Of a stretch of DNA of 47,387 nt, positions 11,942 through 46,276 are shown one piece after another (position 1 is the first letter of the stretch; each line of letters starts with the position of its first letter). The notes under the pieces are model-generated. The model saw only the letters and a list, made by a program, of their open reading frames with translations. It searched no databases and was not told the origin of the DNA. Source of the DNA: a virus (lineage: Duplodnaviria; Heunggongvirae; Uroviricota; Caudoviricetes); IMG/VR virus record IMGVR_UViG_2859827302_000001. One strand, 5' to 3'. A program made the translations under genes and the position numbers.

Positions 11942-12664
11942 AGTGATGAAGAAAAAATACGAACTGGTTGTTAAAGGGATAAATAATTACCCGGATAAGA
12001 TTACTGTTACTGTGGCACTGGAAATTGGTGGGTATCCGTCACTGTTGTTGCCATATGTGGCGATTAGTCTTGACCGTACTGAAGGTGCCACGCTGGAGTT
12101 TTACGAAGCGGAGGCGAAAAAGCAGGCGAAGCAGTTTTTCATGGATGTTGCTGCCGGGTTATGTGAAGGGAACGAACCGTTGCAGGAAAAGCGCCCCATC
12201 ATTTTAGAGGCGCAGGATGTGTTGATAACCTACAGAGGAAAACTACCGGGAATAATTACTTGTTCTCTGAAGATGCCGCCGTCAACACTGCGGTCAGAAA
12301 AAGAGGCGTCTTGTCTGCAGTCTGAGTACTCCATTACGGTTAAAAGTGCCGGAGAGGAAGGAAATAAACGTTATTTTATTGCGTCTGCACCTGATAAAGA
12401 TCAGGAATGGGAGTGTAACCGGCCATCCTTTGTTGTATACGGAGATGGCGGGAAAATAACCATCTCAGAAAATGGGAAATTAACACCGCCATCGCACCAG
12501 CATAGTGAGGCGCTCATTGAATTTGCCATTGATTACCTGAAGAACAATAAAAAGCAGGGGCTGATGAAGTGCATTGGTCGTTGCATGGGATATCTGCAGA
12601 TAGCTGCTGAGATTGAAGCGCTGGCCAGTGGTGCTGATAAGGATGCAATGGTAATGACTCCAAC

Positions 12665-13168
12665 TTACTGATAGTGTTTTATGTTCAGATAATGCCCGAT
12701 GACCTTGTCATGCAGCTCCACCGATTTTGAGAACGACAGTGACTTCCGTCCCAGCCTTGCCAGATGTTGTCTCAGATTCAGATTATGTCGCTCAATGCGC
12801 TGAGTGTAACGCTTGCTGATAACGTGCAGCTTTCCCTTCAGGCGTGATTCATACAGCGGCCAGCCATCCGTCATCCATACCACGACCTCAAAGGCCGACA
12901 GCAGGCTCAGAAGACGCTCCAGTGTGGTCAGAGTGCGTTCACCGAAGACGTGCGCCACAACCGTCCTCCGTATCCTGTCATACGCGTAAAACAGCCAGCG
13001 CTGATGTGATTTAGCACCGACGTAGCCCCACTGTTCGTCCATTTCAGCGCAGACAATCACATCACTGCCCGGTTGTATGCGCGAGGTTACCGACTGCGGC
13101 CTGAGTTTTTTAAGTGACGTAAAACCGTGTTGAGGCCAACGCCCATAATGCGTGCACTGGCGCGACAT
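12665..13168 (-). CDS. insB: IS1 InsB (expressed as InsAB' by -1 frameshift)
   Basis: 167-aa ORF overlapping insA. Confidence 0.85.
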
Positions 13169-13362
13169 CCGACGCCATTCATGGCCATATCAATGATTTT
13201 CTGGTGCGTACCGGGCTGAGAGGCGGTGTAAGTGAACTGTAGTTGCCATGTTTTACGGCAATGAGAGCAGAGATAGCGCTGATGTCCGGCAGTGCTTTTG
13301 CCGTTACGCACCACGCCTTCAGTAGCGGAGCAGGAAGGACATCTGATGGAAATGGAAGCCAC
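13087..13362 (-). CDS. insA: IS1 InsA
   Basis: [23 protein letters not shown]... zinc-finger/HTH protein. Confidence 0.9.
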
Positions 13363-13565
13363 GCAAGCACCTTAAAATCACCATCATACACTAAATCAGT
13401 AAGTTGGCAGCATTACCGGATGCAATTGTGCGGGAGGCTCTTCTTCGTGATTTTAATACTCCACCCTTTAAAAAAGTGCCGGCTTACTGGCTTCATCCGG
13501 GGCTGACTTATCTTAAAGTGCGTATTTAGTGGGCCAGGGACAGCGGCTGAATATTTAATATATCC

Positions 13566-14099
13566 ATGAACACCAAAATCAAATACGGCCTGTCGGCTGC
13601 CGTTCTGGCGCTGATTGCCGCTGGTGCGCCTGCGCCTGACATTCTCGACCAGTTTCTGGATGAAAAGGAAGGTAACCACACCACGGCATACCGTGATGGC
13701 GCGGGTATCTGGACCATCTGCCGCGGTGCCATCCTGGTGGATGGCAAACCTGTCGTTCCGGGCATGAAGTTGTCGAAGGAAAAATGCGACCGGGTTAACG
13801 CCATTGAGCGTGATAAGGCGCTGGCATGGGTGGAGAAAAACATCAGAGTGCCATTGAGCGAACCCCAGAAAGCGGGGATCGCGTCATTCTGTCCGTACAA
13901 CATTGGTCCCGGTAAGTGTTTCCCGTCGACGTTTTATAAACGAATTAATGCAGGTGATCGCAGGGGAGCGTGTGAGGCGATTCGCTGGTGGATTAAGGAC
14001 GGTGGCAGAGACTGCCGTATTCGTTCAAACAACTGCTACGGTCAGGTATCCCGTCGTGACCAGGAGAGCGCGCTGGCGTGCTGGGGTATCGACAGATAA
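13566..14099 (+). CDS. R: SAR endolysin (T4-lysozyme-like, phage-21-type R)
   Basis: N-terminal signal-anchor-release segment (LSAAVLALIAAGA) then lysozyme core. Confidence 0.8.
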   Translation: MNTKIKYGLSAAVLALIAAGAPAPDILDQFLDEKEGNHTTAYRDGAGIWTICRGAILVDGKPVVPGMKLSKEKCDRVNAIERDKALAWVEKNIRVPLSEPQKAGIASFCPYNIGPGKCFPSTFYKRINAGDRRGACEAIRWWIKDGGRDCRIRSNNCYGQVSRRDQESALACWGIDR

Positions 14100-14194
14100 G
14101 CAGAATATTTTGCTGAAAAATGCGGTTTGCTTACACGGACGGATAACACGAAATCCTGCGAACTGACAAAAACTAAGTGAATAAAAGTAAAAAA

Positions 14195-14228
14195 CCCGTT
14201 TGTTGGCTGCAAGCGGGGTTTTGTGTTT
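14195..14228 (+). terminator. terminator-like hairpin between R and Rz
   Basis: CCCGTTTG-7nt-CAAGCGGG (one GU) then GTTTTGTGTTT. Confidence 0.35.
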
Positions 14229-14297
14229 CCTGACTCTGGAAAAGTCAAAGGAGAAAGTGTGTTTGATTTTAGCAAACTGATTCGGGAGATTCGAGTG

Positions 14298-14397
14298 ATG
14301 GCTGAAAAATTATCCACCTGGAAGTTCATTCTTATCTGGCTGGTGTTTGTGATTATGGCCTCCGGTTATTTCATCGGTCAGATACGCTGGTGGTGAA
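14298..14397 (+). CDS. small hydrophobic ORF (32 aa) ahead of Rz
   Basis: [32 protein letters not shown]; stop TGA one nt before Rz ATG. Confidence 0.3.
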
Positions 14398-14865
14398 ATG
14401 AACCGCGTACTGTGCGTGGTCATCATTGCCCTGCTGGTGGCCTGTGGTGCGCTTAGTCTGGGGCTGAATCATTACCGTGATAACGCCATTACCTACAAAG
14501 CCCAGCGCGACAAAAATGTCAGAGAACTGAAGCTGGCGAACGCGGCAATTACTGACATGCAGATGCGTCAGCGTGATGTTGCTGCGCTCGATGCAAAATA
14601 CTCGAGGGAATTAGCCGATGCGAGAGCTGAAAATGAAACTCTTCGCGCTGACGTTGCCGCTGGTCGTAAGCGCCTGCGTATCAACGCCACCTGTCCAGGT
14701 CCCGTGCGTGAAGCCACCGGCACCGCCCGCGTGGATAATGCAACCGGCCCCCGACTGGCAGACACCGTTACACGGGATTATTTCACCCTCAGAGAGCGGC
14801 TGATGACGATGCAGAAGCAACTGGAAGGGGCGCAGGAATATATCCGTACTCAGTGCCTGAAATAA
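14398..14865 (+). CDS. Rz: Rz i-spanin
   Basis: N-terminal TM segment, coiled-coil periplasmic domain. Confidence 0.8.
14633..14803 (+). CDS. Rz1: Rz1 o-spanin lipoprotein embedded in +1 frame of Rz
   Basis: [15 protein letters not shown] lipobox, proline-rich mature part. Confidence 0.75.
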
Positions 14866-15058
14866 GTTTTGTTGATGCGCCGTATCGTCGCTGTATTCCC
14901 TCATTAACAGAGACCGCAGCCCGACAGGGAGACTCCTCTGCGCGAGTGTGCGGGGATAATCAAAAACGATACACACCGGGGTTTACCGCGTTAACGGAGC
15001 GCGGCGTTGTCCCCTCATAGTCGCCTGTCCGGTGCGATGGTGGAAGAAACCGGGATGT

Positions 15059-15253
15059 TTATTCATCATCACTTTGGATTGATGTATATGCTCTCTTTTC
15101 TGACGTTAGTCTCCGACGGCAGGCTTCAATGACCCAGGCTGAGAAATTCCCGGACCCTTTTTGCTCAAGAGCGATGTTAATTTGTTCAATCATTTGGTTA
15201 GGAAAGCGGATGTTGCGGGTTGTTGTTCTGCGGGTTCTGTTCTTCGTTGACAT
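15059..15253 (-). CDS. ribbon-helix-helix (Arc/CopG-like) DNA-binding protein
   Basis: RNIRFPNQMIEQINIALEQKGSGNFSAWVIEACRRRL fits beta-strand/helix/helix pattern. Confidence 0.45.
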   Translation of the reverse strand: MSTKNRTRRTTTRNIRFPNQMIEQINIALEQKGSGNFSAWVIEACRRRLTSEKRAYTSIQSDDE

Positions 15254-15452
15254 GAGGTTGCCCCGTATTCAGTGTCGCTGATTTGTATTGTCTGAAGTTG
15301 TTTTTACGTTAAGTTGATGCAGATCAATTAATACGATACCTGCGTCATAATTGATTATTTGACGTAGTTTGATGGCGTAGATGCACGTTGTGACATGTAG
15401 ATGATAATTATTATCATTTTGCGGGTCCTTTCCGGCGATCCGACAGGTTACG

Positions 15453-15464
15453 GGGCGGCGACCT
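15453..15464 (+). other. cosN (GGGCGGCGACCT, lambda 12-nt cohesive-end sequence); cosB follows to ~15640
   Basis: Exact lambda cohesive-end 12-mer followed by ...CTCGCGGTTTTTCACTATTTATGAAAATTTT, matching lambda cos context. Confidence 0.7.
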
Positions 15465-15732
15465 CGCGGTTTTTCACTATTTATGAAAATTTTTCAGGGA
15501 AAATCGTGTCGGTACTTCTCGAATATAACTTTTTGTTTTTTTTAATATTGCATCCGTAAAGGTCCGACATGAAAGTGTCCGAAAATGCCTTTTTCTGGCG
15601 TTTTCATGTCGGGCCTTGTATTTGATAATGGGTTGTTTTCATGAAGGTTAATAAAAAGAGGCTTGCCGAAATTTTCAATGAACTGCCCCGGGAATCCTGG
15701 AGACTAAACTTCCTGAGAAAGAGGTAAACAGG

Positions 15733-16059
15733 ATGACTAAAAATACTCGTTTTTCCCCTGAAGTCCGTCAACGGGCAGTCCGTATGGTTCTGGAAAGTCA
15801 GGGCGAATATGACTCACAATGGGCGACAATTTGTTCCATTGCTCCAAAGATTGGCTGTACGCCGGAGACTCTGCGTGTCTGGGTTCGCCAGCATGAGCGG
15901 GATACCGGGGGCGGTGATGGAGGGCTCACCACCGCTGAACGTCAGCGTCTGAAAGAGCTGGAGCGTGAAAATCGTGAACTGCGCCGCAGTAACGATATCC
16001 TTCGCCAGGCTTCCGCTTATTTTGCGAAGGCGGAGTTCGACCGCCTCTGGAAAAAATGA
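15733..16059 (+). CDS. IS629 OrfA
   Basis: [21 protein letters not shown]... Confidence 0.9.
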
Positions 16060-16946
16060 TGCCACTGCTGGATAAGCTGCGTGAGCAGTACGGGGTCGGA
16101 CCGCTATGCAGCGAACTGCATATTGCCCCGTCAACGTATTACCACTGTCAGCAACAGCGACATCATCCGGATAAACGCAGTGCCCGTGCGCAGCGCGATG
16201 ACTGGCTGAAGAAAGAGATACAGCGCGTATACGATGAAAATCACAAGGTATACGGTGTGCGTAAAGTCTGGCGTCAGTTGTTACGGGAAGGCATCAGAGT
16301 GGCCAGATGCACTGTGGCACGTCTCATGGCGGTTATGGGACTTGCCGGTGTTCTCCGGGGTAAAAAGGTCCGTACGACCATCAGCCGGAAAGCCGTTGCC
16401 GCAGGCGACCGCGTAAACCGTCAGTTCGTGGCAGAACGACCTGACCAGCTGTGGGTGGCTGATTTTACTTACGTCAGCACATGGCAGGGCTTCGTCTATG
16501 TGGCGTTCATCATTGATGTGTTTGCCGGATACATCGTGGGGTGGCGGGTCTCATCGTCCATGGAAACGACATTCGTGCTGGATGCTCTGGAGCAGGCGTT
16601 ATGGGCCCGTCGACCGTCCGGCACGGTCCATCACAGTGATAAAGGTTCTCAGTATGTATCGCTGGCCTACACACAGCGGCTTAAGGAAGCCGGATTACTG
16701 GCATCAACAGGAAGTACAGGCGACTCGTATGACAACGCGATGGCGGAGAGCATCAATGGTCTTTACAAAGCGGAGGTAATACACCGTAAGAGCTGGAAAA
16801 ACCGTGCAGAAGTGGAACTGGCCACACTCACGTGGGTGGACTGGTATAATAATCGACGATTGCTGGAAAGGCTGGGCCATACTCCTCCGGCAGAAGCAGA
16901 AAAAGCTTATTATGCTTCCATCGGAAACGATGATCTGGCAGCCTGA
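16056..16946 (+). CDS. IS629 OrfB transposase
   Basis: 296-aa DDE ORF overlapping orfA. Confidence 0.9.
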
Positions 16947-17473
16947 GTTCACAGATAAAACACTCTCCAGGAAACCCGGGGCGGTTCACAACGTGGACCC
17001 GCGGACGATTGAACGCTGGCAGTCTCAGGGACTCCCTTGCGCCTCCAAAGGTAGTAAGGGCATTGAATCTGTATTTGATACTGCCATGGCAATTCAGTGG
17101 TATGCGCAGAGGGAAACTGATATCGAAAACGAAAAGCTCCGCAAAGAACTGGACGATTTGCGTGCGGCAGCGGAGTCAGATTTACAACCCGGCACCATTG
17201 ACTATGAACGCTACCGGCTCACAAAAGTGCAGGCAGATGCGCAGGAACTGAAAAATGCCCGTGAAGACGGAGTAGTGCTGGAAACTGAACTGTTTACCTT
17301 CATTCTGCAACGTGTGGCACAGGAGATATCGGGGATACTTGTGCGTGTGCCGTTGACATTACAGCGTAAATATCCGGACATTTCACCATCACACCTTGAT
17401 GTGGTGAAAACTGAAATCGCGAAAGCCTCCAATGTTTCAGCTAAGGCCGGTGAAAACGTGGGCGGGTGGATCG

Positions 17474-19402
17474 ATGATTTCAGACGCGCAGAAGGCAGCT
17501 AATGCAGCCGGTGCGATAGCTACAGGGCTTTTATCTCTCATTATTCCTGTTCCACTGACGACAGTTCAGTGGGCCAATAAACATTATTACCTTCCTAAAG
17601 AGTCGTCTTATACCCCGGGGCGGTGGGAAACACTGCCGTTTCAGGTTGGCATCATGAACTGTATGGGCAACGATCTGATTCGCACGGTTAACCTGATTAA
17701 ATCTGCCCGTGTTGGTTATACAAAGATGTTGCTGGGAGTGGAGGCTTATTTTATTGAGCATAAATCACGCAACAGCCTTCTTTTTCAGCCCACGGACTCA
17801 GCTGCTGAAGATTTTATGAAATCTCATGTTGAGCCAACGATAAGGGATGTTCCTGCATTGCTGGAGCTGGCTCCATGGTTCGGAAGAAAACACCGCGATA
17901 ATACGCTCACCCTGAAGCGTTTTTCCTCCGGTGTGGGGTTCTGGTGTCTGGGTGGTGCGGCAGCAAAAAACTACCGTGAAAAATCCGTGGATGTGGTCTG
18001 TTATGACGAGCTTTCCTCGTTCGAACCGGATGTTGAAAAAGAGGGTTCGCCAACCCTGCTGGGGGATAAACGTATTGAGGGCTCTGTATGGCCAAAATCC
18101 ATTCGCGGCTCGACGCCTAAAATCAAAGGCTCCTGCCAGATCGAAAAAGCCGCTAACGAGTCGGCACACTTCATGCGTTTTTATGTGCCCTGTCCGCACT
18201 GTGGGGAGGAGCAGTATCTGAAATTTGGCGATGATGCCTCGCCTTTCGGTCTTAAGTGGGAGAAGAATAAGCCAGAAAGTGTTTTCTACCTTTGTGAGCA
18301 TCATGGCTGTGTGATCCATCAGTCTGAGCTTGACCAGAGTAACGGGCGGTGGATCTGTGAAAACACGGGCATGTGGACCCGTGACGGCCTGATGTTTTTC
18401 AGCGCCCGGGGTGATGAAATTCCGCCGCCGCGCTCCATCACTTTCCATATCTGGACGGCGTACAGTCCGTTCACCACCTGGGTACAGATTGTCTATGACT
18501 GGCTGGATGCACTGAAAGATCCCAACGGCCTGAAAACCTTTGTGAACACCACGCTGGGCGAGACCTGGGAAGAGGCTGTGGGCGAAAAACTCGATCACCA
18601 GGTACTGATGGATAAGGTTGTGCGTTACACGGCGGCGGTGCCTGCCCGGGTGGTTTATCTGACGGCGGGCATTGACTCGCAGCGAAACCGTTTTGAGATG
18701 TATGTCTGGGGATGGGCTCCGGGAGAGGAAGCCTTTCTGGTGGATAAAATCATCATTATGGGGCGTCCCGATGAGGAAGAGACGCTGTTACGTGTGGATG
18801 CGGCGATCAACAAAAAATACCGCCATGCAGACGGAACCGAAATGACCATTTCCCGTGTCTGCTGGGACATCGGGGGGATCGATGGCGAAATCGTTTATCA
18901 GAGGTCAAAAAAACACGGTGTTTTCCGGGTGCTGCCGGTAAAAGGCGCATCTGTCTATGGCAAGCCGGTGATCACCATGCCAAAAAACCGCAATCAGCGG
19001 GGCGTGTATCTGTGTGAAGTGGGGACGGACACCGCAAAAGAAATTCTCTATGCCCGTATGAAAGCCGATCCCACGCCTGTGGATGAAGCCACGTCGTATG
19101 CCATCCGTTTTCCTGATGATCCGGAGATTTTTTCGCAGACAGAGGCGCAGCAACTGGTCGCGGAAGAGCTTGTGGAGAAGTGGGAAAAAGGAAAGATGCG
19201 TCTGCTGTGGGATAACAAAAAGCGGCGTAACGAAGCGCTGGACTGCCTGGTGTATGCCTACGCGGCATTACGTGTGTCCGTGCAACGCTGGCAGCTTGAT
19301 CTGGCTGTACTGGCAAAATCCCGGGAAGAAGAGACGACCCGGCCAACCCTTAAAGAACTGGCAGCGAAGCTGTCCGGAGGAGTGAATGGTTACAGTCGCT
19401 GA
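17474..19402 (+). CDS. A: terminase large subunit (lambda gpA-like)
   Basis: Strong collinear similarity to lambda A (YYLPKESxY, KSARVGYxKMLLGV, VDVxxYDEL). Confidence 0.9.
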
Positions 19403-19592
19403 ACTGCAGGCGCTGCGTCAGGCGCGCCTTGATTTATTAACCGGTAAACGGGTGGTGTCTGTCCAGAAAGATGGTCGCAGAATTGAATATACGGCGGCTT
19501 CTCTGGATGAGCTTAACCGGGCGATCAATGATGCGGAGTCGGTACTGGGGACAACCCGGCGTCGCCGTCGTCCGCTGGGAGTGAGGTTATGA
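19386..19592 (+). CDS. W: head-tail joining protein gpW
   Basis: LTGKRVVSVQKDGRRIEYTAASL... lambda W-like. Confidence 0.8.
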   Translation: MVTVAELQALRQARLDLLTGKRVVSVQKDGRRIEYTAASLDELNRAINDAESVLGTTRRRRRPLGVRL

Positions 19593-19826
19593 AACGAACG
19601 CCTGTCCTGATTGATGTGAACGGCGTTCCGCTTCGTGAGAGTCTCAGCTACAACGGGGGCGGTGCAGGATTTGGCGGGCAAATGGCTGAGTGGTTGCCAC
19701 CGGCGCAGAGTGCCGATGCGGCCCTGCTACCCGCGTAGACTGGCCCCCTGAATCTCCAGACAACCAGTATCACTTAAATAAGTGATAGTCTTAATACTAG
19801 TTTTTAGACTAGTCATTGGAGTACAG

Positions 19827-20192
19827 ATGATTGATGTCTTAGGGCCGGAGAAACGCAGACGGCGTACCACACAGGAAAAGATCGCAATTGTTCAGCAGAG
19901 CTTTGAACCGGGGATGACGGTCTCCCTCGTTGCCCGGCAACATGGTGTAGCAGCCAGCCAGTTATTTCTCTGGCGTAAGCAATACCAGGAAGGAAGTCTT
20001 ACTGCTGTGGCCGCCGGAGAACAGGTTGTTCCTGCCTCTGAACTTGCTGCCGCCATGAAGCAGATTAAAGAACTCCAGCGCCTGCTCGGCAAGAAAACGA
20101 TGGAAAATGAACTCCTCAAAGAAGCCGTTGAATATGGACGGGCAAAAAAGTGGATAGCGCACGCGCCCTTATTGCCCGGGGATGGGGAGTAA
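19827..20192 (+). CDS. insC: IS2 InsC
   Basis: [25 protein letters not shown]... Confidence 0.9.
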
Positions 20193-21055
20193 GCTTAGTC
20201 AGCCGTTGTCTCCGGGTGTCGCGTGCGCAGTTGCACGTCATTCTCAGACGAACCGATGACTGGATGGATGGCCGCCGCAGTCGTCACACTGATGATACGG
20301 ATGTGCTTCTCCGTATACACCATGTTATCGGAGAGCTGCCCACGTATGGTTATCGTCGGGTATGGGCGCTGCTTCGCAGACAGGCAGAACTTGATGGTAT
20401 GCCTGCGATCAATGCCAAACGTGTTTACCGGATCATGCGCCAGAATGCGCTGTTGCTTGAGCGAAAACCTGCTGTACCACCATCGAAACGGGCACATACA
20501 GGCAGAGTGGCCGTGAAAGAAAGCAATCAGCGATGGTGCTCTGACGGGTTCGAGTTCTGCTGTGATAACGGAGAGAGACTGCGTGTCACGTTCGCGCTGG
20601 ACTGCTGTGATCGTGAGGCACTGCACTGGGCGGTGACTACCGGCGGCTTCAACAGTGAAACAGTACAGGACGTCATGCTGGGAGCGGTGGAACGCCGCTT
20701 CGGCAACGATCTTCCGTCGTCTCCAGTGGAGTGGCTGACGGATAATGGTTCATGCTACCGGGCTAATGAAACACGCCAGTTCGCCCGGATGTTGGGACTT
20801 GAACCGAAGAACACGGCGGTGCGGAGTCCGGAGAGTAACGGAATAGCAGAGAGCTTCGTGAAAACGATAAAGCGTGACTACATCAGTATCATGCCCAAAC
20901 CAGACGGGTTAACGGCAGCAAAGAACCTTGCAGAGGCGTTCGAGCATTATAACGAATGGCATCCGCATAGTGCGCTGGGTTATCGCTCGCCACGGGAATA
21001 TCTGCGGCAGCGGGCTTGTAATGGGTTAAGTGATAACAGATGTCTGGAAATATAG
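20150..21055 (+). CDS. insD: IS2 InsD transposase
   Basis: 301-aa DDE ORF overlapping insC. Confidence 0.9.
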
Positions 21056-22506
21056 GGGCAAATCCACCGCGTTGCGTCTGGGGAATGCCCGGGCAGATGA
21101 TCTGGTGCGCAATAACGGAATAGCGGCTAATGCGGTGGCTCTGCATAAGGATCACATTGTCGGGCATATGTTTCTGATCAGCTACCGTCCGAACTGGCGC
21201 TGGCTGGGGATGCGGGAGACCGCAGCAAAAAGCTTTGTCGATGAGGTGGAGGCGGCCTGGTCGGAATACGCCGAAGGGATGTTTGGCGAGATCGACGTGG
21301 AAGGAAAACGCACGTTCACGGAATTTATCCGTGAAGGTGTGGGCGTTCATGCGTTTAACGGCGAAATCTTTGTGCAGCCGGTCTGGGATACGGAAACCAC
21401 GCAGTTATTCCGTACGCGTTTTAAAGCCGTGAGTCCGAAACGGGTGGACACGCCTGGACACGGTATGGGGAACCGTTTTCTGCGGGCCGGTGTGGAGGTC
21501 GATCGATATGGCCGTGCCGTCGCGTACCATATTTGTGAGGATGATTTTCCGTTCTCTGGGAGTGGACGATGGGAACGGATCCCGCGTGAACTTCCCACCG
21601 GGCGTCCGGCCATGCTGCATATTTTCGAGCCGGTGGAGGACGGGCAGACCCGTGGGGCTAATCAGTTTTACAGCGTCATGGAACGGCTGAAGATGCTCGA
21701 TTCCCTGCAGGCAACACAGCTTCAGTCGGCCATAGTGAAGGCGATGTATGCAGCGACGATTGAAAGTGAACTTGATACCGAAAAGGCCTTTGAATATATC
21801 GCCGGCGCGCCACAGGAGCAGAAGGATAATCCGCTTATTAATATTCTGGAGAAGTTCTCCAGCTGGTATGACACGAATAACGTGACACTGGGCGGTGTCA
21901 AAATTCCGCACCTTTTCCCTGGTGATGATCTGAAACTACAGACTGCGCAGGATTCAGACAATGGATTTTCTGCGCTTGAACAGGCGCTGCTGCGGTATAT
22001 CGCCGCCGGTCTTGGCGTTTCCTACGAACAGTTGTCCCGTGATTACTCGAAGGTCAGTTACTCAAGTGCCCGCGCCTCCGCCAATGAGTCGTGGCGCTAT
22101 TTTATGGGGCGGCGAAAATTTATTGCGGCCCGGCTGGCCACGCAGATGTTTTCCTGCTGGCTGGAAGAGGCACTTCTTCGGGGGATTATTCGTCCGCCAC
22201 GGGCACGTTTTGATTTTTATCAGGCGCGATCAGCCTGGTCACGGGCAGAGTGGATTGGTGCCGGAAGAATGGCCATTGACGGGCTCAAGGAAGTCCAGGA
22301 ATCAGTGATGCGCATTGAGGCCGGACTGAGCACGTATGAGAAAGAGCTGGCGCTGATGGGCGAGGATTATCAGGACATTTTCCGCCAGCAGGTCAGGGAA
22401 TCTGCTGAGCGGCAAAAAGCCGGACTCTCACGTCCGGTGTGGATAGCGCAGGCGTATCAGCAGCAGATAGCGGAGAGTCGCAGGCCGGAAGAGGAGACAA
22501 CACCAC

Positions 22507-24012
22507 GTGAGACGTAATCTTTCACACATTATTGCCGCAGCATTCAATGAACCGCTGCTTCTGGAGCCCGCCTATGCGCGGGTTTTCTTTTGCGCGCTCG
22601 GGCGCGAGATGGGGGCAGCAAGTCTTTCGGTACCACAACAGCAGGTACAGTTTGATGCTCCCGGAATGCTGGCTGAAACGGATGAGTACATGGCCGGAGG
22701 TAAACGACCGGCCCGTGTTTACTGGGTGGTGAACGGTATTGCTGTACTGCCGGTGACCGGCACGCTGGTGCACCGGCTGGGTGGTATGCGGCCATTTTCT
22801 GGAATGACAGGCTATGACGGTATTGTCGCCTGTCTTCAGCAGGCAATGGCGGATAGCCAGGTGCGGGGCGTACTGCTGGACATTGACAGTCCGGGCGGGC
22901 AGGCCGCCGGCGCGTTTGACTGCGCTGACATGATTTACCGCCTCCGTCAGCAGAAGCCGGTCTGGGCACTGTGCAATGACACTGCCTGTTCTGCAGCCAT
23001 GCTGCTGGCGTCGGCCTGCTCCCGACGGCTGGTTACCCAGACATCCCGTATCGGCTCCATTGGCGTGATGATGAGCCATGTCAGCTATGCCGGTCATCTG
23101 GCGCAGGCCGGTGTGGATATCACGCTGATTTATGCCGGGGCGCACAAGGTGGATGGCAATCAGTTTGAAGCGTTGCCGGCAGAGGTTCGCCAGGATATGC
23201 AGCAGCGGATTGATGCGGCGCACCGGATGTTTGCCGAAAAAGTGGCGATGTATACCGGGTTGTCTGTGGATGCGGTCACGGGAACAGAGGCCGCCGTTTT
23301 TGAAGGTCAGTCCGGCATTGAGGCCGGGCTGGCGGATGAATTAATCAATGCGTCGGATGCCATCAGTGTGATGGCCACGGCGCTGAACAGTAATGTCAGA
23401 GGAGGCACTATGCCGCAATTAACTGCAACGGAAGCCGCCGTGCAGGAGAACCAGCGAGTGATGGGGATCCTGACATGCCAGGAAGCGAAAGGACGTGAAC
23501 AGCTTGCCACGATGCTGGCAGGGCAACAGGGCATGAGCGTTGAACAGGCCCGGGCGATTCTGGCCGCGGCGGCACCGCAGCAGCCGGTGGCATCCGCGCA
23601 GAGTGAAGCCGATCGCATTATGGCGTGTGAAGAAGCGAACGGTCGTGAACAACTGGCGGCAACGCTGGCGGCGATGCCGGAGATGACGGTGGAAAAAGCC
23701 CGCCCGATCCTGGCGGCTGCACCACTGGCGGATGCCGGGCCCTCACTTCGTGATCAGATCAGGGCCCTGGATGAGGCAAAAGGGGCAGAAGCGCAGGCTG
23801 AAAAACTGGCGGCCTGCCCGGGAATGACCGTGGAGAACGCCCGGGCTGTGCTGGCTGCGGGATCAGGTAAGGCCGAACCGGTCTCTGCATCCACAACCGC
23901 CCTGTTTGAACATTTCATGGCGAATCATTCACCGGCAGCGGTGCGGGGTGGCGTGTCACAGACGTCAGCAGACGGTGATGCGGACGTGAAAATGCTCATG
24001 GCCATGCCATGA
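22507..24012 (+). CDS. C: head protease/scaffold gpC (with in-frame Nu3-like C-terminal region)
   Basis: ClpP/SppA-like protease region similar to lambda C; GTG start overlapping B stop. Confidence 0.8.
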   Translation: MRRNLSHIIAAAFNEPLLLEPAYARVFFCALGREMGAASLSVPQQQVQFDAPGMLAETDEYMAGGKRPARVYWVVNGIAVLPVTGTLVHRLGGMRPFSGMTGYDGIVACLQQAMADSQVRGVLLDIDSPGGQAAGAFDCADMIYRLRQQKPVWALCNDTACSAAMLLASACSRRLVTQTSRIGSIGVMMSHVSYAGHLAQAGVDITLIYAGAHKVDGNQFEALPAEVRQDMQQRIDAAHRMFAEKVAMYTGLSVDAVTGTEAAVFEGQSGIEAGLADELINASDAISVMATALNSNVRGGTMPQLTATEAAVQENQRVMGILTCQEAKGREQLATMLAGQQGMSVEQARAILAAAAPQQPVASAQSEADRIMACEEANGREQLAATLAAMPEMTVEKARPILAAAPLADAGPSLRDQIRALDEAKGAEAQAEKLAACPGMTVENARAVLAAGSGKAEPVSASTTALFEHFMANHSPAAVRGGVSQTSADGDADVKMLMAMP

Positions 24013-24048
24013 AGTCAGTGCTGACCATCAATATGAGGTTTTAACAAA

Positions 24049-24396
24049 ATGGTGACGAAAACCATCACTGAACAGCGTGCGGAAGTACGTATTTTTGCTG
24101 GTAATGATCCGGCTCATACCGCCACAGGCAGCAGCGGGATTTCTTCTGCAACACCGGCTCTGACGCCCCTGATGCTGGATGAAGCCACCGGGAAACTGGT
24201 GGTCTGGGATGGACAGAAAGCCGGTAGTGCGGTTGGCATACTGGTACTGCCGCTTGAAGGCACAGAGACGGTGCTGACCTATTACAAGTCGGGGACCTTT
24301 GCGACGGAGGCAATCCGCTGGCCTGACAGTGTGGATGAACACAAAAAGGCAAATGCCTTTGCCGGCACCGCCCTGAGTCACGCGGCTCTGCCGTAA
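24049..24396 (+). CDS. D: head decoration protein gpD
   Basis: NDPAHTATGSSG...VVWDG...TYYKSGTF lambda D-like. Confidence 0.8.
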   Translation: MVTKTITEQRAEVRIFAGNDPAHTATGSSGISSATPALTPLMLDEATGKLVVWDGQKAGSAVGILVLPLEGTETVLTYYKSGTFATEAIRWPDSVDEHKKANAFAGTALSHAALP

Positions 24397-24453
24397 CACG
24401 TTATCAGGCCACCATGGTGGCCTGACTGATTTCTGAATGAAAGGAACTGATTT

Positions 24454-25482
24454 ATGGGATTGTTTACGACCCGCCAGTTACTCAGTTATACCGAACAAAA
24501 AGTTAAATTCCGTGCGCTATTTCTGGAGCTGTTTTTCCGCCGTACGGTGAATTTCCACACCGAAGAGGTGATGCTGGACAAAATTACCGGAAAAACGCCG
24601 GTGGCGGCCTATGTCTCCCCGATCGTTGAAGGAAAAGTGCTGCGCCATCGTGGTGGTGAAACCCGCGTGTTGCGTCCGGGCTACGTCAAGCCCAAACACG
24701 AATTTAATTACCAGCAGGCGGTTGAGCGCCTTCCCGGTGAAGATCCGGCTCAGCTGAACGACCCGGCCTACCGTCGTCTGCGTATCATCACTGATAACCT
24801 CAAACAGGAAGAGCACGCTATTGTGCAGGTGGAAGAAATGCAGGCGGTGAATGCCGTGCTGTATGGCAAATATACGATGGAAGGAGACCAGTTCGAGAAA
24901 ATTGAAGTCGATTTTGGCCGATCGACGAAGAATAACATCATACAAGGTAGCGGTAAGGAGTGGTCAAAACAGGATCGTGACACGTTCGACCCGACATATG
25001 ATATCGACCTTTTCTGTGATCAGGCCAGTGGTCTTGTGAATATTGCCATTATGGACGGTACCGTCTGGCGTCTGCTGAATGGCTTTAAGCTTTTCCGCGA
25101 AAAAATGGATACCCGTCGCGGTTCAAATTCACAACTCGAAACGGCAGTGAAAGATCTGGGCGCAGTGGTATCCTTCAAGGGGTATTACGGCGATCTGGCC
25201 ATTGCGGTAGCGAAAACGTCTTATGTGGCAGAGGACGGTACCGAAAAACGTTATCTGCCGGAGGGCACGCTGGTGCTGGGGAATACGGCAGCAGAGGGGA
25301 TTCGTTGCTATGGAGCCATTAAGGATGCACAGGCGTTGTCTGAAGGAGTGGTGGCTTCTTCCCGTTACCCGAAACACTGGCTGACCGTGGGCGATCCGTC
25401 CTGTGAATTCACCATGACGCAGTCCGCGCCGCTGATGGTGCTGCCGGATCCGGATGAGTTTGTGGTGGTACAGGTGAAATAA
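24454..25482 (+). CDS. E: major capsid protein gpE
   Basis: 342 aa, collinear with lambda E. Confidence 0.9.
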   Translation: MGLFTTRQLLSYTEQKVKFRALFLELFFRRTVNFHTEEVMLDKITGKTPVAAYVSPIVEGKVLRHRGGETRVLRPGYVKPKHEFNYQQAVERLPGEDPAQLNDPAYRRLRIITDNLKQEEHAIVQVEEMQAVNAVLYGKYTMEGDQFEKIEVDFGRSTKNNIIQGSGKEWSKQDRDTFDPTYDIDLFCDQASGLVNIAIMDGTVWRLLNGFKLFREKMDTRRGSNSQLETAVKDLGAVVSFKGYYGDLAIAVAKTSYVAEDGTEKRYLPEGTLVLGNTAAEGIRCYGAIKDAQALSEGVVASSRYPKHWLTVGDPSCEFTMTQSAPLMVLPDPDEFVVVQVK

Positions 25483-25533: not shown

Positions 25534-25902
25534 ATGGCAACAAAAGAAGAAAATCAGAAACGTCTTCGTGAACTGGCTGGTCTGCTGGGGCGCGAGGCGG
25601 ATATGTCGGGGAGTGCTGCGGATATCGCACAGCGTGTGGCAGAGTGGGAAGAGGAGATTTGCGCCTCGGAAAATGAAATCGCAGATGTTGATGATACCGT
25701 TCATGAGCAGGCATGCAGGCACACCGGTGAGGATGACGTTGGTATTCTGGAACGTATCAGGCTTCTGAAGTGTTTTTACCTGTGCGGTGTTGACGATGAA
25801 ACAGGTGAGCCTGTTGAGCATGTTGATGCTGGCAGAGTAATTCTGATGCCCCCCTCAGTGGCAAAAGACATGGTCAGGAGCGGAATGGCCGTTTATGCGT
25901 GA
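25534..25902 (+). CDS. FI: DNA packaging protein FI
   Basis: Position and size after E; acidic protein. Confidence 0.6.
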   Translation: MATKEENQKRLRELAGLLGREADMSGSAADIAQRVAEWEEEICASENEIADVDDTVHEQACRHTGEDDVGILERIRLLKCFYLCGVDDETGEPVEHVDAGRVILMPPSVAKDMVRSGMAVYA

Positions 25903-26237
25903 TTTTGAGAATTCCTTTGATGCTGCCCTTGCCAGGGTGGACAGAACGATTGTTGAAGTGATGGGGCTCTGTGCGCAGTTCACCTCGGGGGCACAGTGTG
26001 GCAGCGAAGTTCAGGGGGTTTTTGACGATCCGGAGTGCCGGTAGCGGGGTCCGTATTGAAGGAAGCAGCCCGTCATTATTTGTGCGGACGGATACGGTTC
26101 GTGCCGTGCGGCGTGGTGACACGCTGACCATTAATGGTGAGACATTCTGGGTGGATCGTGTTTCTCCGGATGACGGGGGTAGCTGTTATCTCTGGCTCAA
26201 CCGTGGGCAACCACCCGCAGTTAACCGGCGACGATAA
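25895..26237 (+). pseudogene. FII: head-tail connector FII with a frameshift near 26030..26044
   Basis: N-terminal frame stops at TAG 26042..26044; C-terminal lambda-like part (VRIEGSSPSLFVRTD...DRVSPDDGGSC) is in another frame; removing one base restores GVFDDPEAGSGVRIEG. Confidence 0.7.
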
Positions 26238-26251
26238 ACGCAGGGTGAATT

Positions 26252-34116: not shown

Positions 34117-37100
34117 ATGGGAAAAGGTGGCGGTAAGGCACACACTCCTCGTGAGGCGAAGGATAATCTCAAATCCACGCAGATGATGAGTGTGATTGAT
34201 GCGATAGGTGAGGGACCGATAGAAGGTCCGGTGAAGGGACTGCAGAGTATTCTGGTGAACAAAACCCCACTGACGGACACGGACGGCAATCCCGTGATAC
34301 ACGGTGTGACGGCGGTCTGGCGCGCCGGGGAGCAGGAGCAGACACCACCGGAAGGCTTTGAGTCCTCCGGCTCTGAAACCGGACTGGGCGTGGAAGTGAC
34401 GAAGGCAAAACCGGTGACGCGCACCATTACGTCCGCGAACATTGACCGCCTGCGGGTTACCTTCGGGGTGTAGTCACTGGTGCAGACCACGTCAAAGGGC
34501 GACCGTAATCCTTCCTCTGTCCGGATTCTGATTCAGTTACAGCGTAATGGCCGCTGGGTGACGGAAAAGGACGTCACCATTAACGGCAAGACCACCTCAC
34601 AGTTCCTGGCCTCGGTGATTCTGGATAATCTGCCTCCCCGGCCCTTTAACATCCGGATGGTCAGGGAGACGGCGGACAGCACCACGGACCAGCTGCAGAA
34701 TAAGACGCTGTGGTCGTCATACACCGAAATCATCGATGTGAAACAGTGCTACCCGAACACGGCCATTGTGGGGCTGCAGGTGGATGCGGAGCAGTTCGGC
34801 GGCCAGCAGATGACGGTGAACTACCATATCCGCGGTCGCATCATCCAGGTGCCGTCAAACTATGACCCGGAAAAACGCACGTACAGTGGTATCTGGGACG
34901 GCAGTCTGAAACCGGCATACAGCAACAACCCGGCCTGGTGCCTGTGGGACATGCTGACTCACCCGCGCTACGGCATGGGAAAACGTCTGGGGGCGGCGGA
35001 TGTGGACAAGTGGGCGCAGTATGCCATCGGGCAGTACTGCGACCAGACGGTCCCGGATGGTTTCGGGGGGACCGAGCCGCGGATGACCTTTAATGCGTAC
35101 CTGGCACAACAGCGTAAGGCGTGGGACGTTCTCAGTGATTTCTGCTCTGCGATGCGCTGTATGCCGGTATGGAACGGTCAGACGCTGACGTTCGTTCAGG
35201 ACCGCCCGTCGGATGTGGTGTGGCCGTACACCAACAGCGATGTGGTGGTGGATGATAACGGCGTGGGATTCCGCTACAGCTTCAGTGCCCTGAAGGACCG
35301 GCACACGGCGGTGGAGGTGAATTACACCGACCCGCAGAACGGCTGGCAGACCTCCACGGAACTGGTGGAAGACCCGGAAGCCATACTGCGCTACGGACGC
35401 AACCTGCTGAAGATGGATGCGTTTGGCTGTACCTGCCGCGGTCAGGCTCACCGTGCAGGTCTGTGGGTGATAAAGACCGGACTGCTGGAAACGCAGACGG
35501 TGGACTTCACGCTCGGGTCACAGGGGCTGCGTCACACACCGGGTGACATTATTGAAATCTGTGATAACGACTATGCCGGGACTATGACCGGCGGACGTGT
35601 CCTGTCCATTGATGCTGCCACCCGCACCCTGACGCTGGACCGTGAGGTTACCCTGCCGGAGACAGGTACATCGGCGGTGAACCTGATTAACGGCAGCGGT
35701 AAGCCGGTGAGTGTGGACATCACCGCACACCCCGCGCCGGACCGGATACAGGTCAGTACCCTGCCTGATGGTGTGGAGACATACGGGGTGTGGGGACTCT
35801 CCCTGCCGTCACTGCGCCGTCGCCTGTTCCGCTGTGTCTCCGTCCGGGAAAACACGGACGGCACCTTTGCCATCACGGCGGTGCAGCACGTACCGGAAAA
35901 AGAAGCCATCGTGGATAACGGTGCCCGCTTTGAGCCGCAGTCAGGCTCCCTGAACAGCGTCATCCCACCGGCAGTGCAGCACCTGACGGTGGAGGTGAGC
36001 GCAGCTGACGGCCAGTATCTGGCACAGGCGAAATGGGACACGCCGCGGGTGGTGAAGGGGGTGCGCTTCAGTCTGCGACTGACCAGCGGAAGCGGAGAAG
36101 ACAGCCGTCTGGTGACCACCGCTATCACTGCGGATACAGAGCATCGTTTCAGTGGCCTGCCGCTCGGGGAATACACCCTGACGGTGCGGGCGATAAACAG
36201 CTATGGCCAGCAGGGTGAACCTGCCACCACCACCTTCCGGATTGCCGCACCGGCAGCACCGTCGCGGATTGAGCTGACGCCGGGCTATTTTCAGATAACC
36301 GCCACGCCGCATCTTGCCGTTTATTACCCGACGGTACAGTTTGAGTTCTGGTTCTCGGAAAAGCGGATTGCGGATATCAGGCAGGTTGAAACCGCAGCCC
36401 GCTATCTTGGCTCGGCGCTGTACTGGATAGCTGCCAGTATCAATATCAAACCGGGCCATGATTATTATTTTTATATCCGCAGTGTGAATACTGTTGGCAA
36501 ATCGGCATTCGTGGAGGCTGTCGGTCGGGCGAGCGATGATGCGGAAGGTTACCTGGATTTCTTCAAAGGAGAAATCGGGAAAACACATCTGGCCCAGGAG
36601 CTGTGGACGCAGATTGATAACGGTCAGCTTGCGCCGGACCTGGCTGAAATCAGGACGTCCATTACGAATGTCAGCAATGAAATCACGCAGACCGTCAATA
36701 AAAAACTGGAAAATCAGAGTGCGGCAATCCAGCAGATACAGAAAGTTCAGGTTGATACAAATAATAACCTGAACAGCATGTGGGCCGTGAAACTGCAGCA
36801 GATGCAGGACGGACGCCTTTATATTGCGGGTATCGATGCCGGTATTGAGAATACGCCAGCAGGAATGCAGAGTCAGGTGCTGCTGGCGGCAGATAGGATT
36901 GCGATGATTAATCCTGCGAATGGCAACACAAAGCCGATGTTTGTTGGTCAGGGCGATCAGATATTTATGAATGAAGTGTTCCTGAAATATCTGACGGCTC
37001 CCACCATTACCAGCGGCGGTAATCCTCCGGCATTTTCCCTGACACCGGACGGGCGGCTGACGGCGAAAAATGCCGATATCAGCGGTAACGTGAATGCGAA

Positions 37101-37590
37101 CTCCGGGACGCTCAACAACGTCACGATTAACGAGAACTGTCGGGTTCTGGGAAAATTGTCCGCGAACCAGATTGAAGGCGATCTCGTTAAAACAGTGGGC
37201 AAAGCTTTCCCCCGGGACTCCCGTGCACCGGAGCGGTGGCCATCAGGAACCATTACCGTCAGGGTTTATGACGATCAGCCGTTTGACCGGCAGATTGTTA
37301 TTCCGGCGGTGGCATTCAGCGGCGCTAAACATGAGAAAGAGCATACTGATATTTACTCCTCATGCCGTCTGATAGTGCGGAAAAACGGTGCTGAAATTTA
37401 TAACCGTACCGCGCTGGATAATACGCTGATTTACAGTGGTGTTATTGATATGCCTGCCGGTCACGGTCACATGACACTGGAGTTTTCGGTGTCAGCATGG
37501 CTGGTAAATAACTGGTATCCCACAGCAAGTATCAGCGATTTGCTGGTTGTGGTGATGAAGAAAGCCACTGCAGGCATCACGATTAGCTGA
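34117..37590 (+). pseudogene. J: tail tip/host specificity protein gpJ with in-frame amber codon at 34471..34473
   Basis: ORFs 34117..34473 and 34480..37590 share one frame; TAG sits where lambda J has Gln ([22 protein letters not shown]). Confidence 0.85.
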
Positions 37591-39820: not shown

Positions 39821-40606
39821 AGCAGTGCGACCAACAGCACTTCCGAGTCACTGGCGGCAACGCCAAAAGCGGTTAAGGTGGTAATGGGTGAAACGAACAA
39901 GAAAGCGCCCTTAAATAGTCCTGCACTGACCGGAACGCCAACAACACCAACTGCGCGACAGGGAACGAATAATACCCAAATCGCAAGCACGGCTTTCGTT
40001 ATGGCTGCGATTGCCGCCCTTGTAGATTCGTCACCTGACGCACTGAATACGCTGAACGAGTTAGCGGCGGCGCTGGGAAACGACCCGAATTTTGCGACCA
40101 CCATGACTAACGCGCTTGCGGGTAAGCAACCGAAAGATGCCACCCTGACGGCGCTGGCCGGGCTTACTACTGCGGCAGACAAGTTTCCGTATTTTACGGG
40201 GAATGATGTCGCCAGCCTGGCAACCCTGACAAAAGTCGGGCGGGATATTCTTGCGAAATCGACTGTTGCTGCCGTTATCGAATACCTCGGTTTACGAGAA
40301 CTCGGCACAAGCGGGGAGAAAATACCGTTACTCAGTACAGCGAATACCTGGACTAATCGACAAACATTCAGCGGTGGCCTTTCTGGTGAACTATCCGGCA
40401 ATGCTTCTACAGCTGCAAAATTAAAAACTGCCAGGAAAATAAGCAATGTGGCTTTTGATGGTTCCTCCGATATCACATTAAAAGCAAGTCATGTTGGTGC
40501 GTTTGCCTTAGGGAAAACAGGAAGCACCGTTGCGAATGATAAAGCAGTTGGGGTAATGCTGCCAACTTACTGATTTAGTGTATGATGGTGATTTTAAGGT
40601 GCTTGC

Positions 40607-40882
40607 GTGGCTTCCATTTCCATCAGATGCCCTTCCTGCTCCGCTACTGAAGGCGTGGTGCGTAACGGCAAAAGCACTGCCGGACATCAGCGCTATCTCT
40701 GCTCTCATTGCCGTAAAACATGGCAACTACAGTTCACTTACACCGCCTCTCAGCCCGGTACGCACCAGAAAATCATTGATATGGCCATGAATGGCGTCGG
40801 ATGTCGTGCCAGTGCACGCATTATGGGCGTTGGCCTCAACACGGTTTTACGTCACTTAAAAAACTCAGGCCGCAGTCGGTAA
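40607..40882 (+). CDS. insA: IS1 InsA
   Basis: Identical to the InsA of the 12650 copy. Confidence 0.9.
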
Positions 40883-41304
40883 CCTCGCGCATACAACCGG
40901 GCAGTGATGTGATTGTCTGCGCTGAAATGGACGAACAGTGGGGCTACGTCGGTGCTAAATCACGTCAGCGCTGGCTGTTTTACGCGTATGACAGGATACG
41001 GAGGACGGTTGTGGCGCACGTCTTCGGTGAACGCACTCTGGCCACACTGGAGCGTCTTCTGAGCCTGCTGTCGGCCTTTGAGGTCGTGGTATGGATGACG
41101 GATGGCTGGCCGCTGTATGAATCACGCCTGAAGGGAAAGCTGCACGTTATCAGCAAGCGTTACACTCAGCGCATTGAGCGACATAATCTGAATCTGAGAC
41201 AACATCTGGCAAGGCTGGGACGGAAGTCACTGTCGTTCTCAAAATCGGTGGAGCTGCATGACAAGGTCATCGGGCATTATCTGAACATAAAACACTATCA
41301 GTAA
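40801..41304 (+). CDS. insB: IS1 InsB
   Basis: 167-aa ORF. Confidence 0.85.
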
Positions 41305-41991
41305 GTTGGAGTCATTACCAGCAGTTGGATGGAACTGGAGTAGCGGAGCCTATAACGCAACTATTAGAGGTGCATCAACGTTAATTATTCATTTTTATAT
41401 GGGAGAAGGAAGTTGTCCTGCAGCTCAGTTTCGGATTAATTATAAAAATGGCGGTATTTTTTATCGTTCAGCCCGTGATGGTTATGGTTTTGAAGCCGAC
41501 TGGTCCGAATTTTACACCACCACCAGAAAACCTTCAGCAGGAGATGTTGGTGCACTGCCGTTATCTGGTGGTCAACTGAATGGTGCACTGGGTATCGGAA
41601 CAGCCAGTGCTCTTGGCGGTAATTCGATTGTATTGGGTGATAATGATACGGGCTTTAAACAAAATGGCGATGGTAATCTGGATGTTTATGCTAATAACGT
41701 CCATGTTATGCGCTTTGTCTCCGGAAGCATTCAAAGTAATAAAACCATAAATATTACGGGACGTGTTAATCCCTCGGATTACGGTAACTTTGATTCCCGC
41801 TATGTGAGAGATGTCAGACTTGGCACACGAGTTGTTCAGACCATGAAGAAAGGCGTGATGTATGAAAAATCAGGCCATGTAATCACGGGGCTTGGTATTA
41901 TCGGTGAAGTCGATGGTGATGATCCGGCAGTATTCAGACCAATACAAAAGTTAATTAACGGAACATGGTATAACGTATCGCAGGTATAATC

Positions 41992-42040: not shown

Positions 42041-42292
42041 TGAGGTGTACTGGCAATAGCGGACACTACCATTTGTTCTTTTTTAAGCAGCCATCTGATG
42101 ATATTTTTCCCTGAAGGCTGCCGGGGAGATATTCCCCAGACGAGAGTGACGACGCTGACGATTGTAGAAAATCTCAATGTATTCCCGTATTACTGAGATG
42201 GCTTCATCCCGGTTATTAAAACGATAGTGGCTCAGGCTCTCATTTTTCAGCGTTCCCCAGAAGCTTTCCATCGGAGCGTTGTCGTAACAGTT
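42041..42292 (-). mobile_element. IS3-family (IS600-like) right-end fragment, truncated by the IS66-family element
   Basis: Same sequence as 5894..6145; OrfB C-terminal 74 codons only. Confidence 0.7.
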
Positions 42293-42329
42293 GTAAGCGT
42301 GCAGCAAGAACCGTATTGACGGGGATGTG

Positions 42330-43867
42330 TTATTCAGTCGGCAGTGCTACGCGCCAGGGGAGCAGTTCGCCGACCCGGTTTATCGGCCAGTCGGCTATGA
42401 CGTCAAGGACATAGCGGAGGTAGCTTTCTGGCTCCACTCCGTTCAGTTTGCACGTCCCGATCAGGCTGTACAGCAGCGCTCCCCGCTCTCCTCCATGATC
42501 CGAACCGAAGAACAGGTAGTTTTTGCGGCCCAGACTGACCATCCGCAACGCATTTTCAGCGATGTTATTGTCCGCCTCAGCCCAGCCATCATCTGCATAG
42601 TACGTCAGCGCCGGCCACTGGTTCAGGGCGTATGCGAACGCTTTCGCCAGTTCTGAGTGTCGCGACAGGGTTTTCATCTTTTCACGCAGCCAGCTTTCCA
42701 GGGATTTCAGCAGCGGTTTCGTTTTCAACTGACGTTCGGCAAGGCGCTGCTCCGCCGTCATTCCCCTTATCTCTGCCTCGATGGCGTACAGTTCGCCGAT
42801 CCGTTTCAGCGCTTCCTCCGTCAGGGCTGACGGGGTGCGAACGTGCACATCGTGGATTTTACGGCGGGCGTGAGCCCAACAGGCGGCTTCCGTTATCCGG
42901 CCATCCCGGTACAGCTCGTTGAACCCGGCGTATGCATCCGCCTGCAGTACACCACTGAACCCCGCAAGATGGGTCTGCGGATGGATGCCTTTTCTGTCCG
43001 GGCTGTAAGCGAACCACACCGCCGGCGCCAGCGTTGACCCGGCGTTACGGTCGTCACGAACGTAGGTCCATAACCGCCCGGTCTTCGTTTTCTTATTGCC
43101 TGGCAACAGCACCGGGACAGGCGTGTCATCGCATGGAGCTTACCGTCAGTCAGCACATAATCCTGAAGCGCTTCTTCCAGCGGTGACAGTAGCCGGCAGC
43201 ATGCATCCACCCAGCCCGACAGCAGTGAACGACTCAGCTCCACGCCCTGGCGGCCGTACATTTCAGACTGGCGGTACAGCGGGGTGTGCTCTGCATACTT
43301 TGAGATCAGCACGCGGGCCAGCAGCCCCGGTCCTGCGATACCCCGCTCGATGGGCCGTGAAGGCGCGGGGGCCTGCACGATGGCATCGCACTGAGTACAG
43401 GCATGCTTTTCACGTACAGTCCGGATAACCCGGAAGACGCTGCGCATCAACTCCAGCTGTTCGGCGGCATCCTCACCCGGATAGCTCAGTGAGCCTCCAC
43501 ATTCCGGGCAGCATGACGCTGCCGGCAGCAGCCGTTTTTCATCGCGGGGGAGTGATTCGGGGAACGGTTTGCGGGTGCGGGTTTGACGCAGCGGGCGCTG
43601 CACGGCCGGGTCGTCAACCCGACCGGTAAGGGTATCACTTTCTTTCTGAAGTGCCTTCAGGTCAGCTTCCATCTGTGCGATACGACGGGAGACTTTTTCG
43701 GAGCGGCTGCCGAAGTTCATCCGGCGCAGCTTATCCAGCTGTGCCTGCAGATGGTCTATTTCGCGTTCACGCTCGTTCAGCTTTTCCAGCAGGGCACGGT
43801 TCAGCGCCTCCTGTTCGGCAAGGAGACGTTTCAGTGCATTGATATCGTCAGGAAGTGAGCTGCTCAT
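42330..43867 (-). pseudogene. IS66 family TnpC transposase, frameshifted (two overlapping ORFs)
   Basis: N-part 42893..43867 and C-part 42330..43112 are in different frames. Confidence 0.7.
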
Positions 43868-43915
43868 ACCGGGTATATTACCAGGCTCATTCAGCGTCGA
43901 CCAGGATAAAGAGGC

Positions 43916-44661: not shown

Positions 44662-45086
44662 TACTTATTTGGTGGACACCACTTTGTCTAATTCGTCAGA
44701 TTCTGACCAGACGGTTCAGGCTGTACGCTTACGCCTGCGCCGCATTGCGTATTACACAGCTTTTTGTAGATATATTTCCAGGCAGGCAGTGAAGAAGGTA
44801 AAACATGGAAATGGAATCAAATTGACCATGTAACGCCGCGGGATAAGGTTCAAAAACATCATGGCTAATTTTATGTTTAATTTTTGATTCCCCAGCCCTT
44901 GTAGATGCCGCGTTCAGACTAGCTTCGTTCAAATCCATTAAAGATATCAGACTACTCTCAGGTACGTGAGTAAGGTAAAACCCAGTTCCAACACCAATAT
45001 CCAGATGGTTGTTACCTACATGTTCCAGAAAGTGTGGAAGAAGGTGTTCCTTTGTAGGACATCCCCATGCAGGTAATGACTCCAAC

Positions 45087-45464: not shown

Positions 45465-45508
45465 TTCCGCGCAGACGATGACGTCACTGCCCGGCTGTAT
45501 GCGCGAGG

Positions 45509-46266: not shown

Positions 46267-46276
46267 TTAAACGGAA

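Follow-up and report, generated by a model that had tools for sequence, protein, structure and literature searches.

What interrupted portal gene B of a lambdoid prophage, and does the interruption call for anything beyond ordinary transposition? The question is raised by a 47,387-nucleotide stretch of viral DNA (Caudoviricetes; IMG/VR record IMGVR_UViG_2859827302_000001), referred to here as the window, in which the insertion sequence (IS) IS2 lies inside B. An original prediction had described this element together with insertions in int, nu1, and stf. We consider it about 93% probable that the locus records a single, ordinary IS2 transposition into B of a phage-21-headed, Stx-phage-like lambdoid prophage, and that this was a redundant step of neutral decay during the IS expansion of Shigella.

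Anatomy of the IS2 insertion in B

We read the sequence directly and checked the coordinates by script. IS2 occupies positions 19736-21066 on the plus strand, exactly 1331 bp, with the orfA-proximal end reading TAGACTGGCCCCC... and the distal end reading ...GGGGCAAATCCA. It is bracketed by CCGCG at 19731-19735 and 21067-21071, and the match between the two copies is exactly 5 bp, failing at 6 bp or more. Gene B (19589-22517, plus strand) starts with ATG at 19589 and is split after codon 49 (GCG), which ends at 19735. The first triplet of IS2, TAG at 19736-19738, is an in-frame stop, giving an N-terminal product of exactly 49 amino acids (aa) with no IS-encoded tail. The remainder of B (codons 50-530 with TAA, 21072-22517) lies beyond the right repeat. 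When the phage 21 portal was used as a tblastn query, the 5' portion (codons 1-49, 19589-19735) matched residues 1-49 at 100%, and the 3' portion matched residues 49-530 at 99.8% without gaps. The predicted identity and length of the element, its exact duplication, and its position after codon 49 were all borne out. The downstream codons are also intact as claimed, although they number 481 sense codons plus TAA rather than 480. Split after codon 49 and followed immediately by TAG, B in its present form is not an uninterrupted, expressible portal gene.

The position of B fits a portal gene. It lies in the head operon downstream of the terminase genes nu1 and A, between an intact W (gpW head-tail adaptor, 19386-19592, plus strand) and an intact C (S49 protease/scaffold of 501 aa, 22507-24012, plus strand).

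The inserted element itself was 99.9% identical over its full length to RefSeq Escherichia coli copies annotated "IS3-like element IS2 family transposase," and the closest E. coli copies differed from it by one mismatch. Its transposase genes are oriented in the same direction as B. An insC-type orfA (19827-20192, plus strand, 121 aa) carries the HTH_Tnp_1 domain (PF01527), and an insD-type orfB (20150-21055, plus strand, 301 aa) carries the rve integrase-core domain (PF00665 and PF13683). The slippery heptamer AAAAAAG (A6G) is present in the orfA/orfB overlap (20144-20150, plus strand), and orfB is in the -1 frame relative to orfA. The terminal inverted repeats, aligned by eye, are imperfect, TAGACTGGCCCCCTGAATCTCCAGACA... 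facing the reverse complement of the other end, TGGATTTGCCCCTATATTTCCAGACA..., with a 1-nucleotide offset. Only one end has the 5'-TG/CA-3' terminus, in agreement with descriptions of IS2 in the literature. IS2 belongs to the IS3 family and generates 5-bp duplications. The window element matches IS2 of E. coli and Shigella in length, open reading frames (ORFs), A6G site, inverted repeats, and 5-bp duplication, with no substantial difference, and as judged from its sequence, this copy is intact in both its ORFs and its ends.

Restored B is a phage 21 portal allele

When IS2 and one repeat were removed in silico, an ORF of 1593 nucleotides encoding 530 aa was obtained, with no stop or frameshift. 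A further lesion in this restored ORF, which the original prediction had named as evidence against itself, was looked for and not found. The restored protein was identical to the phage 21 portal (gene 4, UMO75419.1) at 529 of 530 aa, and the two genes differed at 6 of 1593 nucleotides with no indels. At the DNA level, restored B shared 99.9% identity with uninterrupted portal genes of prophages in many E. coli genomes and 99.6-99.7% with several sequenced phages. In a panel of intact 530-aa homologues, restored B differed by 1-2 residues and had no private substitution. The protein matched the lambda portal family in Pfam (PF05136, E = 4.7e-100), with residues 29-397 aligned to model positions 2-354 of 354. 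The description of B as lambda-like therefore holds for the family but not for the allele, which is that of phage 21 and shares just 61% aa identity with lambda gpB.

The similarity to phage 21 extends beyond B. The gene order nu1-A-W-B-C-D-E is shared, and cos, nu1, A, W, and B of the window prophage are 99.7-100% identical to those of phage 21. By contrast, the tail genes are only about 77% identical, and the portal gene is split by IS2. Directly upstream of an IS629-like insertion in nu1 lies the cos region (15453-15678), a 100% match to bases 1-226 of phage 21. It contains the R3/I1/R2/R1 sites of cosB that are annotated for that phage.

A 495-codon ORF (21030-22517) covers the 3' portion of B and likewise matches PF05136. 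It begins at GTG 21030 and would encode 14 IS2-derived residues followed by portal residues 50-530, and it is called as a gene in the source record. A truncated but partly functional portal might thus still be made. Part of the missing N terminus may also be dispensable in the mature protein, given that gpB is annotated in the lambda record with an N-terminal leader peptide that is removed in maturation. We nevertheless regard this possibility as highly improbable. A promoter scan for a hybrid outward promoter gave no promoter-like site at or near the IS2/B junction, and no Shine-Dalgarno-like sequence was seen in the 18 bases that precede the GTG. The late promoter and the Q region are deleted, and the ORF lacks the first 21 positions of the portal Pfam model. 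Moreover, particle formation would be impossible with nu1, FII, and J broken as well. Since the insertion splits the Pfam portal domain, no promoter-like site is found at the junction, and the region of Q and the late promoter is lost, we infer that the portal function of B has probably been lost.

The insertion is absent from sister prophages

The exact-protein look-up and contig retrieval showed that window positions 9589-29738 are base-for-base identical to CP026828.1 (GCA_002950015.1), and the protein names in the source record are those of Shigella dysenteriae. Among 5,426 complete E. coli genomes, no copy of the left B/IS2 junction was found, and the matches either ended at the IS2 boundary or consisted of IS2 alone. 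A scan of one genome per GTDB species for the exact 43-mer of the left junction likewise gave no match.

We then traced sister assemblies through the junction protein formed by an IS1 in ydfR (DUF1327). This IS1 (12650-13417, minus strand, duplication GGATGCAAT) is common to all sister genomes found, and the search yielded three further long assemblies. Two of them, L018 (GCA_002968215.1) and L019 (GCA_002968235.1), were collinear with window positions 7999-25320 at 99.8-99.96% identity and carried the same ydfR insertion. Both have the exact empty IS2 site, with a single CCGCG and an intact B of 530 aa; the presence of this exact string in two sister genomes excludes chance. The nu1 insertion site is also empty in both, and their 182-aa Nu1 is identical to the restored window protein. 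They further retain Q, a gene for a DnaB-type helicase, and a full-length methylase gene. The third assembly, L020 (CP026840.1), shares the ydfR insertion and an IS600/IS66/IS1 right end (window 42041-47387, 99.8% identity) but lacks the whole lysis-head-tail block, from the lysozyme gene through stf.

The original prediction had proposed asking whether sister strains carry the same insertions or different ones, and the answer was mixed. The ydfR insertion is present in all sisters found, the insertions in B and nu1 are absent from two, and the third has deleted the block in which they would lie. Because L018 and L019 share the IS1 in ydfR but have an empty site in B, the IS2 insertion in B is lineage specific and younger than the ydfR insertion. 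Two further searches for sisters were uninformative: the exact C protein was too rare, revealing one extra short contig only, and the exact Z protein was too common, with all ten of the places shown having intact B, FII, and J and not belonging to the sister lineage.

All three sister prophages also carry IS2 between Q and the methylase gene (2425-5091 in L018 and L019; 3761-5091 in L020), and in L018 and L019 this copy is itself split by a second IS2. The corresponding region is deleted in the window, indicating that the ancestral prophage had an IS2 copy nearby. That copy could have been the donor for the insertion in B.

Draft assemblies also bear on the insertion. A contig found in four samples, with a protein source-named Shigella dysenteriae, begins at window position 21068, inside the right CCGCG copy. 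Similarly, contigs from at least 15 samples begin inside the right duplication of the IS1 insertion in stf and end at the IS600 boundary. These contigs suggest, without proving it, that the B insertion is shared among members of the window's own clade. They also bear on whether the IS2 in B is an assembly artefact, a multi-copy IS misplaced in CP026828.1. IS2 is multi-copy in such genomes, and the full junction occurs in just one complete genome. However, both junctions are base-perfect with a canonical 5-bp target duplication, which misassembly would not create, and the four-sample contig breaks independently inside the repeat, as do those at stf. On these two grounds misassembly was rejected, and we consider it scarcely credible.

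Contig breaks near codon 49

Many unrelated contigs from E. coli, metagenomes, and Logan stop at codons 48-54 of this same portal allele (L002-L010; window 19730-19740), close to the point at which IS2 entered. The region around codon 49 could accordingly be a special site that IS2 or other elements hit recurrently, a hotspot of portal inactivation in phage-21-type prophages. Among the contigs found by an exact search with the 49-aa N-terminal fragment, the nine examined apart from the source genome all ended in "...CCCGCG," "...CCCGCGT," or "...CCCGCGTT." None reached into IS2. Three of the nine end in TT ("...CCCGCGTT"), corresponding to the uninterrupted sequence, and the other six are too short to tell; ends of the form "...CCCGCGT" would also arise from an IS2 junction (TAGACT...) beside an intact copy. 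The breaks were therefore rejected as evidence for a shared or recurrent IS2 insertion. Together with the finding of no second IS2 junction in the complete E. coli genomes, this makes a hotspot very unlikely. The breaks, which coincide with the IS2 target site, are most likely assembly forks that arise where co-resident prophages share a polymorphic or mosaic stretch.

Other IS elements in the prophage

The insertions claimed in int, nu1, and stf were real, each having its own target duplication and each being restorable to a full-length ORF. IS911 lies in int (1259-2507, minus strand, duplication TGT; restored Int, 428 aa). An IS629-like element of the IS3 family (1310 bp, 15679-16988, plus strand, duplication CAA) lies in nu1 after codon 12, and its removal gives the 182-aa protein found in the sisters. 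IS1 lies in the side tail fibre gene stf (40552-41319, plus strand, duplication AGCAGTTGG; restored Stf, 934 aa). For the lytic growth of lambda, neither stf nor int is required.

A second IS911 (5848-7999, plus strand) lacks a target duplication. It is itself interrupted by a 900-bp element (5894-6793, duplication GCT) that, to judge by its termini, is presumably an IS600 with an internal deletion. This IS911 links the ea22 region directly with the mid-portion of the DNA methylase gene, which it truncates. In the related phage LC567835.1, the same two points are about 11.5 kb apart, and the interval contains cI, cro, replication genes (O, P-type), and Q; in the window, the IS911 stands in place of this early region. 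An IS600 fragment interrupts tfa near codon 17, and IS66-family and IS1 sequence follows it. In total, IS copies and fragments in the window number at least nine.

IS debris makes up the right end (42041-45841) of the prophage. The IS600 fragment in tfa is accompanied there by an IS66-family element that is truncated (42893-44661) and by an IS1 that diverges from the other two copies (about 91% identity) and has the duplication CCCCATGCA. Next come a gene for a hexapeptide acetyltransferase and dinI.

Point lesions in FII and J

Two lesions of the prophage do not involve IS elements. The head-tail joining gene FII (25895-26250, plus strand) has an 11-bp deletion at 26035/26036, causing a frameshift and a product of 49 aa instead of 117 aa. 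The deletion was seen by comparison with E. coli Z1323HEC0108, which is identical at all other aligned positions but one. The tail-tip gene J (34117-37590, plus strand) has an in-frame TAG at codon 119 (34471-34473).

The same break in J, with a 118-aa fragment followed by a 1036-aa remainder, recurs in another, distinct prophage of this chromosome (CP026828.1 2797665-2818021), at a distance of about 360 kb. The two prophages are 94.4% identical in nucleotide sequence over L-K-I-J-lom. Among Logan contigs, about 30 or more samples also yielded DNA 100% identical to the window at J. These findings point to an amber allele that is old or was gene-converted.

Overall state of the prophage

The prophage is flanked on the left by mlrA and is mosaic. 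Its int-xis-ea22 arm and its late regulatory region, with the methylase gene, tRNA genes, and a nanS-like gene, resemble Stx-type phages, and no stx genes were found in it. The late regulatory region (8927-11575) has the layout of an Stx phage, in which three tRNA genes (Met-CAT, Arg-TCG, and Arg-TCT) are followed by a DUF1737 gene and then by a gene for a 542-aa SASA/NanS-like esterase, with no stx between them.

The prophage lacks what a functional, inducible lambdoid prophage needs. The early region, comprising the repressor gene, cro, the replication genes, and Q, is absent relative to LC567835.1, and int, nu1, B, FII, J, stf, and tfa are all disrupted. The picture of four ISs in otherwise pristine coding sequences is accurate for the four genes named but not for the prophage as a whole, in which the early-region loss and the lesions of FII, J, ydfR, tfa, and the methylase gene accompany the full set of IS copies.

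The cryptic lambdoid prophages of E. coli K-12 (DLP12, Rac, Qin, and e14) are immobilised by IS insertions, deletions, and point mutations, and the window prophage resembles them in this respect. It differs in keeping a near-complete late operon of about 30 kb, which indicates an earlier stage of decay than that of the K-12 prophages.

Discussion

An intact IS2 copy would have transposed into B of the prophage that lies beside mlrA in the S. dysenteriae chromosome CP026828.1, creating the 5-bp CCGCG duplication. The leading TAG of IS2 would end translation after residue 49 and leave the remaining 481 codons without a start. With the portal domain split, no functional portal would be expected, and hence no proheads. 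The event is recent and specific to one lineage, following the shared IS1 insertion in ydfR. It is one among at least nine IS-related lesions and two point lesions in a prophage whose immunity, replication, and Q region is also lost. Nothing contradicts the insertion itself, and the pseudogenization of a Shigella prophage gene by IS2 is a known kind of event.

Such events have a well-documented setting. Five ISs (IS1, IS2, IS4, IS600, and IS911) have expanded in Shigella to 229-348 insertions per chromosome, with strong variation from strain to strain (PMC7373316). That study (Hawkey et al. 2020) covers S. dysenteriae serotype 1, S. sonnei, and S. flexneri, and it left phage regions out of its single-nucleotide variant phylogenies. 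IS1, IS2, IS600, and IS911 are likewise found in the window, as are lineage-specific insertions that differ between close strains and IS-bounded deletions without target duplications; the present locus differs in being a prophage example in another S. dysenteriae genome.

An alternative is that the IS hits, including that in B, were individually selected because inactivating packaging or morphogenesis locks in the prophage or removes the risk of lethal induction, which would amount to adaptive domestication. In its favour, the three sister lineages each disable the prophage differently: the window lineage by insertions in int, nu1, B, and stf together with the early deletion; that of L018 and L019 by the nested IS2 between Q and the methylase gene; and that of L020 by deletion of the lysis-to-tail block. 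However, cI, cro, O, P, and Q are gone from the window prophage, so hits in B have nothing left to disable. The non-IS lesions, the deletion in FII and the amber codon in J, are as expected under relaxed constraint. Furthermore, with hundreds of IS insertions and high turnover in Shigella (PMC7373316), several insertions in a 45-kb non-essential region are expected by chance. Given this documented expansion, selection is not needed to account for the insertion in B, and we consider it unlikely.

We therefore favour a redundant, neutral IS2 insertion. Because several other essential functions are independently broken, the insertion in B is redundant and would most simply be neutral. Some points nonetheless weigh against this reading. 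We deduce neutrality indirectly, and selection against a functional prophage would also produce sister lineages that inactivate the same prophage in different ways. The loss of portal function is deduced from truncation alone. Finally, the order of the B insertion is fixed relative to the ydfR insertion but not relative to the early-region deletion.

Beyond correct annotation, the insertion is of little importance in itself. The ORFs of B, int, nu1, and stf can be restored in silico, but "restorable" ORFs do not make the prophage restorable. For this S. dysenteriae clade, the insertion in B offers a possible lineage marker. The locus also provides a clean, well-dated case of the Shigella IS expansion dismantling a prophage stepwise. 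An ancestral IS1 insertion in ydfR was followed by lesions specific to each lineage: IS2 in B and the IS629-like element in nu1 in one, nested IS2 near Q in another, and loss of the late genes en bloc in a third.

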